From the NCBI GenBank assembly GCA_964016885.1, contig OZ024741.1, positions 396,862,001-396,926,000 of the forward strand: a stretch of DNA of 64,000 nucleotides. Reading direction: 5' to 3'. Origin of the DNA: Eledone cirrhosa (lineage: Eukaryota). Position 1 is the first letter of the stretch, and every line of letters starts with the position of its first letter. Positions 46,141-48,268 of this stretch are shown here, one piece after another. Below the pieces are notes generated by a model. It did not search any database and was not told where the DNA came from. It was given only the letters and a program-made list of their open reading frames with translations. The position numbers and the translations under genes are program-made.

Positions 46141-47013
46141 TATATATATATATATATATATATATATATATATATATATATATATATATATAACGAAGGA
46201 ATTGTGGTAAGGAACCAGATGGACAATAACGCACCAGAGTAGTCAATACTTAGGGTAGTAGAGTGGGTAATAGGAAAATTTATGGCCCCGACGGCAGAGC
46301 TCAAGCCGTTTCGACGGCTATTTCCGGACTCAGAAATAGACGTCTGGGCCATACTTTTTCCTATATATATATATATATATATATATATATATATATATAT
46401 ATATATATATATATATGTATATATATATATATATATATATATATATATATATATATATATATATATATATATATATATATATATATATATATATATATAT
46501 ATATATACGGAAGAAATGTGGTAAGGAACCAGGTGGACCATAACGCACCAAAGTACTCAATACTTAGGGTAGTTGAGTGGGTAATAGGAATGAGTAGGAC
46601 CCCGACAGCAGAGCTCAAGCCGTTTCGACGGCTATTTCTGTAGTCCAGAAATAGCCGTCGAAACGGCTTGATCCCTGCCATCGGGGTCATACTTTTTCCT
46701 ATTGCCCACTCTACTACACTAAGTAATGAATTATTGGCTTGATTTTTTTCATTTTTTCTTCTCTTTACGTTGCCTCCCCATTCGTGTCTGTTTACATGTC
46801 TTTCTCTTTCTCCACCCAACTCTTTTTATCCCAATAACTTATTTTAGTTATTGTATCGCCCTAGGCGGAGGTATATTGTCTGTAATGCGAAGAAATACCT
46901 ATGATGCCTAGTAGACAACTGATGACGGATATTCCTAACTTCTATTTCTAATTCTTCATTTTTTATACTTAAATGCAGCAACACAGTTCGCCATTTTTGA
47001 TTTATATATATAT

Positions 47014-47208
47014 ATAGTTATGTAATAAACAACATAGGGCTGTTGTTTCATTTACCAGTGGTTTCTTAGAGGCAAGCAGGTTTTGCTTTCAATCATCAGA
47101 ATGAAAAAATCCTGGTGTCATTCTGATGATTGAAAGCAAAATTTGTTTGCTTTTGGGAAGCCGCTGGTGGGTGAAGTAGTTACCTTATGTTGTTTATTAC
47201 ATAACTAT
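47014..47208. repeat. 91-bp-arm fold-back of the 18833 hammerhead family with clustered transitions
   Basis: 47014-47104 versus 47118-47208. The left arm has an intact hammerhead core on the minus strand. 19 arm differences are confined to the central 44 nt. Confidence 0.9.
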
Positions 47209-47602
47209 TAAGCTCTGTAACCTACATAGAGCACTCTTTTGTCCTGGACCTTTCCGACGGAATTACTTCATTTATATATATATGTGTGTATATATAACGA
47301 AGGAATTGTGGTGAGGAACCAGATGGGCCATAGCGCACCAAGGTACTCAATACTTAGTGTAGTAGAGTGGGCAATAGGAAAAAGTATGACCCCTACGGCA
47401 GGGATCATGCCGTTTCGACGGCTATTTCTGGACTACAGAAATAGCCGTCGAAACGGCTTGAGCTCTGCCGTCGGGGTCCTACTTGTTCCTATATATATAT
47501 ATATATACATGTCAACATGAATGGACCTATTATTTTTATCTAAAGACATTTTTTCCAATTCCATCCCGCCCGTCCCTTTAATCTACTTTATTTCTCATTC
47601 TT

Positions 47603-47638
47603 TCTTCTGATGAAGGACTAGCGTCCGAAACGTTAAGA
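47603..47638 (+). ncRNA. Minimal type I hammerhead ribozyme motif
   Basis: TCTT-CTGATGA-A-GGAC-TAGC-GTCC-GAAAC-GTT-AAGA, the classic PLE-type minimal form with palindromic AACGTT. Confidence 0.8.
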
Positions 47639-48268
47639 CCCTCTTCCTGCTATATCAAGCGTTAACCTAATATATACCTTCCATTTACTGTACCGATTGT
47701 GTTGCTATGTCTGTTTACCTTTTACATACACACATATATATATATATATATATATATATATATATATATATATATATATATATATATATATATATATATA
47801 TATATATATGTATATATAACGAAGGAAGTGTGGTAAGGAACCAGGTGGACCATAACGCACCAGAGTACTCGATACTTAGGGTAGTAGAGTGGGAAATAGG
47901 AAAAGTGTCAGGACCCCGACGATTGAGCTCCGGCCGTTTCGACAGCTAGTTTTGAACAGTTCAGAACTAGCTGTCGAAACGGCCGGAACTCAGCCGTCGG
48001 GGTCCTGACTCTTTTCCTATATATATACAATATGTTGAAAAGGTAACACACCAGAGAGAGATATACAGTGCGCTATCAATAAAACAGGGGAAAAAACCAC
48101 CAGTGTATGGAATCTATAACCTATGAAATATATATATATCGTGATATATATATATATATATATATATATATATATATATATATATATATATATATATATA
48201 TATATATATATATTATATATATATATATATATATATATATATATATTATATATATATATATATATATA

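Follow-up and report, generated by a model that had tools for sequence, protein, structure and literature searches.

A 64,000-nucleotide (nt) stretch of the Eledone cirrhosa genome (hereafter the window; GenBank assembly GCA_964016885.1, contig OZ024741.1, positions 396,862,001 to 396,926,000, forward strand) carries five short fold-back repeats, referred to here as copies 37277, 46190, 46506, 47296, and 47816, each of which sits in (TA)n. These hairpins are almost certainly products of a Hydra-type Penelope-like element (PLE), and we consider it probable that every one of them records its own very short Hydra-clade PLE insertion into (TA)n, twin-primed from one RNA and with its ends joined. 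Their arm motif has 50,946 exact matches genome-wide (3.0 Gb), against none for a reversed control. Forty evenly chosen 10-kb stretches (400 kb), taken as a random sample, contained 19 loci with matches, 12 of them paired insertions, which extrapolates to about 9x10^4 paired insertions genome-wide (about 5-16x10^4 as a Poisson range).

The route by which PLEs generate inverted repeats, tails, and pseudo-long terminal repeats (pLTRs) has been called undefined (PMC8557442), and the steps that follow priming have been described as unvalidated (PMC11167929). The repeats of E. cirrhosa provide tens of thousands of natural end products that bear on this open insertion mechanism and that follow two simple rules: a tailed arm is paired with a tail-less arm of one subfamily, and the arms share one stop zone. 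These rules argue against the published self-priming explanation. The repeats also show that hairpins resembling miniature inverted-repeat transposable elements (MITEs) can be abortive PLE insertions.

The parent element and its hammerhead motif

All five fold-back copies were found where a first-pass annotation of the window had placed them, and each bears on one side the same 80-nt tail. Each forms a hairpin of ~110-150 nt with its apex just 5' of GTC-GAAAC-stem III-GTC. Folding energies are -98 to -142 kcal/mol for four copies and about -55 kcal/mol for copy 46190, whose weak fold reflects an internal deletion in one arm; the loss of GAAAC-stem III from its tail-less arm was probably a deletion between two GCCGTC repeats. 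Copy 47816 has, as previously described, a different yet fully paired stem sequence and an apex in the same zone as the others.

Unfolded copies of the hammerhead motif were reached through a loop sequence common to a few apex inserts, and directly upstream of them lie a 3' untranslated region (UTR) and an open reading frame (ORF) encoding reverse transcriptase (RT) plus a GIY-YIG domain at its C terminus. This is the autonomous PLE parent that the first-pass annotation had anticipated. In the tandem array at L277 the unit is 3,542 bp (3.54 kb) and the two ORFs, of 719 and 717 amino acids, combine PLE-type RT and GIY-YIG in a single frame, assigned by the motifs YRDD and AYIGLT; Pfam returned 0 families for the proteins of L146 and L160, and PDB gave 0 matches for the parent protein. 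Tandem pLTRs occur at L154, L158, L160, and L277 and inverted pairs are present too, as is diagnostic of PLEs. In the L146 protein we located DKT at 109, CNCPDRSIC at 564, CNLC at 662, and CKH at 690. The DKT motif, the CxCX5C linker, and the CxxC and CxH motifs match the Hydra clade, while RWR replaces RWK, a conservative change; these motifs and a by-eye comparison with published supplement sequences point to the Hydra-clade assignment. The 80-nt tail continues in tandem copies into the 5' UTR, and the ATG lies 91 nt beyond it. The subfamily of copy 47816 has its own parent, with an altered but still paired stem II. Since the parent endonuclease is C-terminal, Naiad was rejected as a partner.

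The array at L277 (C1:91473000-91482999) consists of neighbors that are ~99.7% alike and has two uninterrupted ORFs, which suggests recent activity or recent array expansion; spacings in other parent arrays are 3.53-3.55 kb. A single derivative array (n=1) at L276 (C2:356029500-356033000) holds seven tandem 299-bp units, each with 5' UTR, 30 nt of the ORF, a hammerhead with a shortened loop II, arm, and tail; its start lies in the stop zone described below and its end at the tail site, and it is a retrozyme-like non-autonomous derivative.

The parent pLTR contains a type I hammerhead-shaped motif with a U3-A8 core, laid out as 5 bp of stem I followed by TTGANAA and G; stem II, 9 bp with a long loop; GAAAC; stem III, 5 bp; and finally GTC and the stem I 3' strand. 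The first-pass annotation had noted that the 5' half of the hammerhead is missing from the fold-back copies, which is correct, but it had expected that half to read CTGANGA. A parent with that core was rejected, as all 33 matches were heterogeneous chance joins or apex inserts. Intact TTGANAA cores number 2,958 genome-wide, against 0 in the control. Across 26 parent copies, 93.4% of cells in the predicted helices were paired, three stem II pairs had changed on both sides between subfamilies, and hammerhead position 7 took all four bases; the core letters were preset by the search, so that their invariance is no evidence, and kinship alone can lift sequences above shuffles whether or not there is structure. 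We regard the motif as a predicted type I hammerhead with helices kept by covariation and a predicted self-cleavage after GUC. Rfam gave no family at gathering score in the window and no hammerhead match in either the window or the parent pLTR, the latter returning TA-repeat noise only. Arm ends at the cleavage zone (+21..+26; 5/164) were considered as proof of cleavage and rejected, being too few and ambiguous, with some explained by microhomology deletion.

Paired arms and a shared stop zone

We number the G of GAAAC as +1, which places the tail-less end (N) at +42 and the tailed end (T) at +122. Two sets of loci were parsed against the 26 parent references: set A, made up of 67 loci surrounding the initial 100 arm-motif matches, is biased toward young copies with one arm intact, and set B comprises the forty random stretches and the window. 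Pairing, apex, and subfamily counts rest on a sample of 117 records. One tailed and one tail-less arm make up 82 of the 85 head-to-head pairs (p=3e-21 against 50:50) and all 69 pairs with both ends exactly mapped; the exceptions are copy 46506 and two pairs that are degraded. TA repeats flank 134/150 exactly mapped ends (69/75 tailed and 65/75 tail-less). The two arms of an insertion come from the same subfamily in every scored pair, with 0 to 3 diagnostic-base differences in 37/37 and 0 or 1 in 29/37, compared with 920/2,000 and 322/2,000, respectively, for random arm pairings. Another 45 pairs were unscorable, including copies 46506 and 47296, which are plainly mixed.

The lengths of the two arms are independent of each other. 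The N arm reaches further in 37 of the 82 pairs, the T arm in 31, and the two are equal in 14; the tail-less arm holds more than 20 nt absent from the tailed arm in 18. At L170, L172, L188, and L204 the T arm is nothing but 25-55 nt of tail and the N arm holds the entire stem region. Among 19 long loci, N is longer in 7 (by 0.1-3 kb), T is longer in 9, 2 are about equal, and 1 escapes classification, with differences of up to 3 kb; the tail-less arm is longer by 1.2-3 kb at L150, L163, and L164, and the tailed arm is longer at L146, L148, and L155.

Such lengths bear directly on cDNA self-priming, or snap-back, by which the first arm would serve as template for the second. It is proposed for head-to-head PLEs in PMC3846280, and the first-pass annotation had located it at stem II. 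The arms are indeed near-perfect mirrors of the same subfamily, and 32 of 79 short junctions (<60 nt) overlap by at least 1 base. A copied arm cannot exceed its template, yet either arm is longer about equally often, by kilobases in long pairs; the stem II 5' strand (positions -53..-45), needed to fold there, is never contained in short arms; and 47 of the 79 junctions are blunt (20) or have inserted bases (27). Loci L150, L163, and L164 together with L146, L148, and L155 largely refute snap-back, barring very common one-sided deletion after insertion, and we give it little credence. Two independent cDNAs per insertion are in our judgment highly likely.

It had also been suggested that copies stem from a palindromic (ambisense), non-autonomous master, either strand of which can be retrotransposed. 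Copies 46506 and 47296 do bear their two arm types in reversed order and have TAGTC/GACTA loops, which are the parent's own loop II sequence as it appears on the longer arm. In both, the arm of CCTACT type stops near -13 and the GATCCC one at -18, a common junction in opposite orientation that would suit an ambisense master, as would the excess of short copies over intact cores (about 17 to 1, with counts from different patterns). However, positions 46584-46729 and the reverse complement of 47347-47492 form a 146-nt inverted block of 95% identity, and a marker for the GATCCC arm has 3 matches in 3 Gb, two of which are this pair and the third not mixed. The arm ends at -13 and -18 in both copies fit one junction duplicated locally, and the pair answers to the local inverted duplication that the first-pass annotation had itself listed as refuting its reading; two RNAs cross-joined at two nearby cuts are a possible alternative. 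Elsewhere, 46 of 48 readable apices are distinct, the arms match the subfamilies of autonomous parents, and short copies have no 5' UTR past the tail. The 117 records likewise lack the fixed unit with private mutations expected of an element with its own master, such as a short interspersed element or a retrozyme. An ambisense master is accordingly most improbable, and secondary amplification of a minority of copies is possible.

An ordinary MITE or a fold-back DNA transposon with TA target duplications would likewise show long inverted repeats whose outer ends are fixed in TA; the first-pass annotation had already disfavored such an interpretation. Here the ends are asymmetric, the center varies from apex to apex, the short copies grade into arms of up to 3 kb encoding RT and GIY-YIG, and no transposase parent was seen. 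Because the parent is a PLE, the MITE reading is refuted, and we assign it next to no probability.

The second regularity concerns where the arms end. Ends fall between -10 and -24 in 60/82 N arms and 55/82 T arms, with a mode at -16/-17, so that the apices cluster in one zone as had been expected from the five copies. The arms reach the same template end despite starts 80 nt apart, and the stop is therefore set by the template and not by processivity. Exact matches genome-wide number 55,736 for a pattern extending to -10, 26,284 to -17, and 8,891 to -23, a fall that is partly due to the mutations a longer pattern gathers; 14 of the first 100 matches to the -23 pattern were produced by the partner arm. 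The zone corresponds to loop II and precedes the predicted cleavage site by 33-47 nt, and is thus not a ribozyme product.

Some copies meet the pLTR twice, which allows two passes to be compared. On the first pass, 129 of the 151 arms that reach -10 stop by -24. For the second pass we used 30 of 237 copies with a tail/5' UTR junction; 24 of the 30 reach -10 and 3 stop, or 3/21 independent loci once one array is collapsed (Fisher p=9e-11 versus the first pass). This contrast favors an RNA end over an intrinsic block. It is the main difficulty for a variant of twin priming in which the shared stop is an RT block imposed by the upper helix of stem II, the hammerhead tertiary fold, or a bound protein, and the enzyme would already have crossed the stronger stems I and III. 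The position of the stop zone on the 3' strand of the conserved stem II upper helix, the spread of stops across about 14 nt, and the failure to find a cap signature in arm-end bases are what such a block would predict, and we hold it to be unlikely but worth more than snap-back. Run-off at the RNA 5' end is the cause of the stop toward which we lean, by a modest margin of confidence.

The twin-priming reading that we prefer would proceed as follows. The PLE protein would nick both target strands, and one complex would prime both at the T and N sites, 80 nt apart, of one RNA; the two priming events on one RNA are inferred from the in vitro work of Frangieh et al. on another PLE clade. Both cDNAs would in most cases terminate where the mRNA itself begins, near -17 in hammerhead loop II, and would then be end-joined head to head, leaving short palindromes as dead-end by-products. 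Long copies would require a template jump or else a template with no 5' end there (a read-through multimer or a circle). This reading predicts an RNA 5' end near -17 and paired use of the two start sites.

Several points weigh against it. One jump on a linear mRNA predicts second-pass stops at -17, and the 3/21 observed mean that a second template class must be assumed. The pass contrast itself could arise from long copies inserting into existing pLTRs or from only processive complexes arriving at the second pLTR. In the in vitro system of PMC11167929 the start site was used alike on both strands, so that strict pairing was unpredicted. The sampled DNA also held 32 single arms without a partner, which were excluded from the pairing counts, and palindromes may lose apex bases after insertion, blurring small length differences. 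Arms stop most often at the A of TYAGT, a motif that resembles an initiator consensus; a literature search for a molluscan initiator found no paper, the TYAGT bases also pair in the upper helix of the extended stem II, and their conservation may be structural. A check for a cap-derived G found G ahead of the modal A in 10/52 truncated arms, most of which are explained by the partner arm.

A more specific version of the run-off idea, which we put forward only tentatively, likens the palindromes to strong-stop products. A PLE dimer would prime both strands at two sites near the 5' end of a single mRNA starting inside the hammerhead, the upstream ribozyme would be split and inert, and the cDNAs would run off after about 60 and 140 nt. 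A full-length copy would need a circular template or a jump to a 40-nt repeat (-17 to +23) left at the RNA 3' end through cleavage by the downstream hammerhead, and the roughly 10^5 palindromes would be failed jumps. If true, this would link the tail and the head-to-head repeats with the pLTR and with what the hammerhead is for.

Relation to known elements

In LTR retroelements, minus-strand strong-stop DNA arises by priming near the RNA 5' end with run-off, and in L1 twin priming a single RNA is primed twice, from both target strands. The family described here differs from both in that it is target-primed, has no tRNA primer and no integrase, and has both primers at fixed sites, which gives a mirror instead of an internal inversion.

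For Hydra-clade PLEs, insertion into (TA)n, a tail at one end, and inverted copies truncated at the 5' side have already been published (Craig et al. 2021, PMC8557442). That clade, which includes Hydra-1_Obim, shares with the parent the C-terminal GIY-YIG, DKT, the CxCX5C linker, CxxC and CxH around the endonuclease end, (TA)n targets, a pLTR with a hammerhead-type motif, and the inverted 5'-truncated copy with a tail at one end; the N-terminal RT region of Hydra-1_Obim is similar to that of the parent in a comparison made by eye. The parent belongs to a different family. It departs from the clade in length (generally under 3 kb, versus the 3.54-kb unit), RWK versus RWR, a tail of 30-40 bp versus 80 nt, and the core, listed as CTGAAGAG for Hydra-1_Obim versus U3-A8 in the parent, whose stem II is long and whose stem III has 5 bp. 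Unlike the described Hydra clade, most insertions of the parent family are just two short arms. The supplement of that study lists a different Hydra family for Octopus.

The Anolis Poseidon PLE (PAc; Frangieh et al. 2024, PMC11167929) offers the closest biochemical parallel: both target strands are cut and extended, the tail is bounded by two internal RT start sites with needed RNA downstream of them, shortening of the RNA 5' end shortens the product, targets are AT rich, and a dimer is predicted. PAc differs in belonging to another clade and being studied in vitro, with no strand bias in start site and with head-to-head products unaccounted for, whereas the two start sites are almost strictly paired here, one per end.

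According to PMC2377424 and PMC3846280, Penelope of Drosophila virilis and PLEs of Adineta vaga also form head-to-head inverted repeats of variable size with an optional tail on one repeat, and they have a transcript start or an initiator-like (Inr) motif in the pLTR; for Penelope, an internal promoter places the start of transcription within the pLTR (PMC2377424). Few copies are involved there and self-priming is the explanation, in contrast to the about 10^5 minimal insertions, the one stop zone, and the arm lengths against self-priming reported here. According to Cervera and de la Pena (2014, PMC4209133), U3-A8 is a known PLE hammerhead variant; the Schistosoma Cercyon PLE hammerheads share type I topology in the pLTR and U3-A8 covariation, motif pairs occur on opposite strands 100-700 bp apart, and circular templates are proposed. 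The Cercyon motifs are minimal, without a stable helix III, unlike the parent motif with its 5-bp stem III and long stem II. Two further sources, PMC6765202 and PMC13282606, served as background only, and "palindrom" and "hairpin" do not occur in the latter.

Our literature search, with Repbase and most subscription papers outside it, found no account of minimal PLE palindromes in mass, of strict pairing of T with N ends, or of a stop zone common to both arms. These three features are what we consider new, and not an ambisense element.

Fold-back copies and neighboring elements in the window

Coordinates of the five copies and of other features in the window are given in Table 1. The 25-nt match at 54445 was considered as evidence of an autonomous long interspersed element (LINE) partner and rejected, since it is a tail stub within the Tx1-like element.

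Table 1. Features of the window (arm ends in the numbering defined above)
Feature	Positions	Strand	Description
Short insertion (copy 37277)	37277..37463	+	Tail-less arm 37277-37323 antisense to the parent, ending at -3; tailed arm 37324-37463 in parent sense, from -17; head-to-head join; in (TA)n
Short insertion (copy 46190)	46191..46362	-	Tailed arm 46191-46330, reaches -17; tail-less arm 46331-46362, GAAAC-stem III gone
Rearranged insertion (copy 46506)	46507..46729	-	Tailed CCTACT-type arm to about -13; second arm of CATACT/GATCCC type from -18, with ~30 nt of tail
Copy 47296	47295..47492	-	Tailed CATACT/GATCCC-type arm to -18; tail-less CCTACT-type arm from -13
Short insertion, older subfamily (copy 47816)	47817..48020	-	Stem II 3' strand of AACTAGCTG type; tailed arm extends to -16 and is joined bluntly to the tail-less arm, which begins at -17
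80-nt tail	47817..47896	-	Equals first 80 nt of parent 5' UTR, between two putative reverse-transcription start sites
Parent-sense pLTR remnant	47954..48020	+	Loop II end, stem II 3' strand, GAAAC, stem III, GTC (predicted cleavage triplet), then stem I 3' strand, ending CCTA-(TA)n
Stub of tail end, 25 nt	54445..54469	+	Within Tx1/L1-like element; sixth tail-bearing site
Hydra-like PLE fragment	39869-41614		RT on -, GIY-YIG end on +
PLE of another clade	43104-46010		RT, C-terminal GIY-YIG (weak Pfam match), CTGAAGA hammerhead motif at 45885
Minimal canonical hammerhead motif	47607-47640		CTGATGA, 4-bp stem II, GAAACGTTA; lies between copies 47296 and 47816, in a pLTR fragment of its own
Imperfect fold-back repeat	47026-47208 and about 18800-18900		TA flanks
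PLE 3' end	49881-50895		Presumably Poseidon-like, from motifs
Degraded element	53400-57990		Presumably Tx1/L1-like, from motifs
Transposase fragment	8878-9268		Presumably mariner-like, from motifs
Transposon end	37647-37680		Presumably Helitron-like, from motifs
Exon-like frame	6198-6608	-	Resembles von Willebrand factor D domain

A second, unrelated family at 36485-36724 and 36757-37160 also has head-to-head arms, of ~190 nt, in (TA)n. It has two end sites ~38 nt apart, with one end type per side at 36757-37160 and at L190, and its 5' ends fall within 14 nt in most full-length matches; it is likely another PLE. A third short repeat, found at L136, L076, L184, and L025, is ~77% identical to the second family over 65 nt and is likewise head to head with a tail on one side. 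The frame resembling a von Willebrand factor D domain indicates that the window may lie within a host gene.
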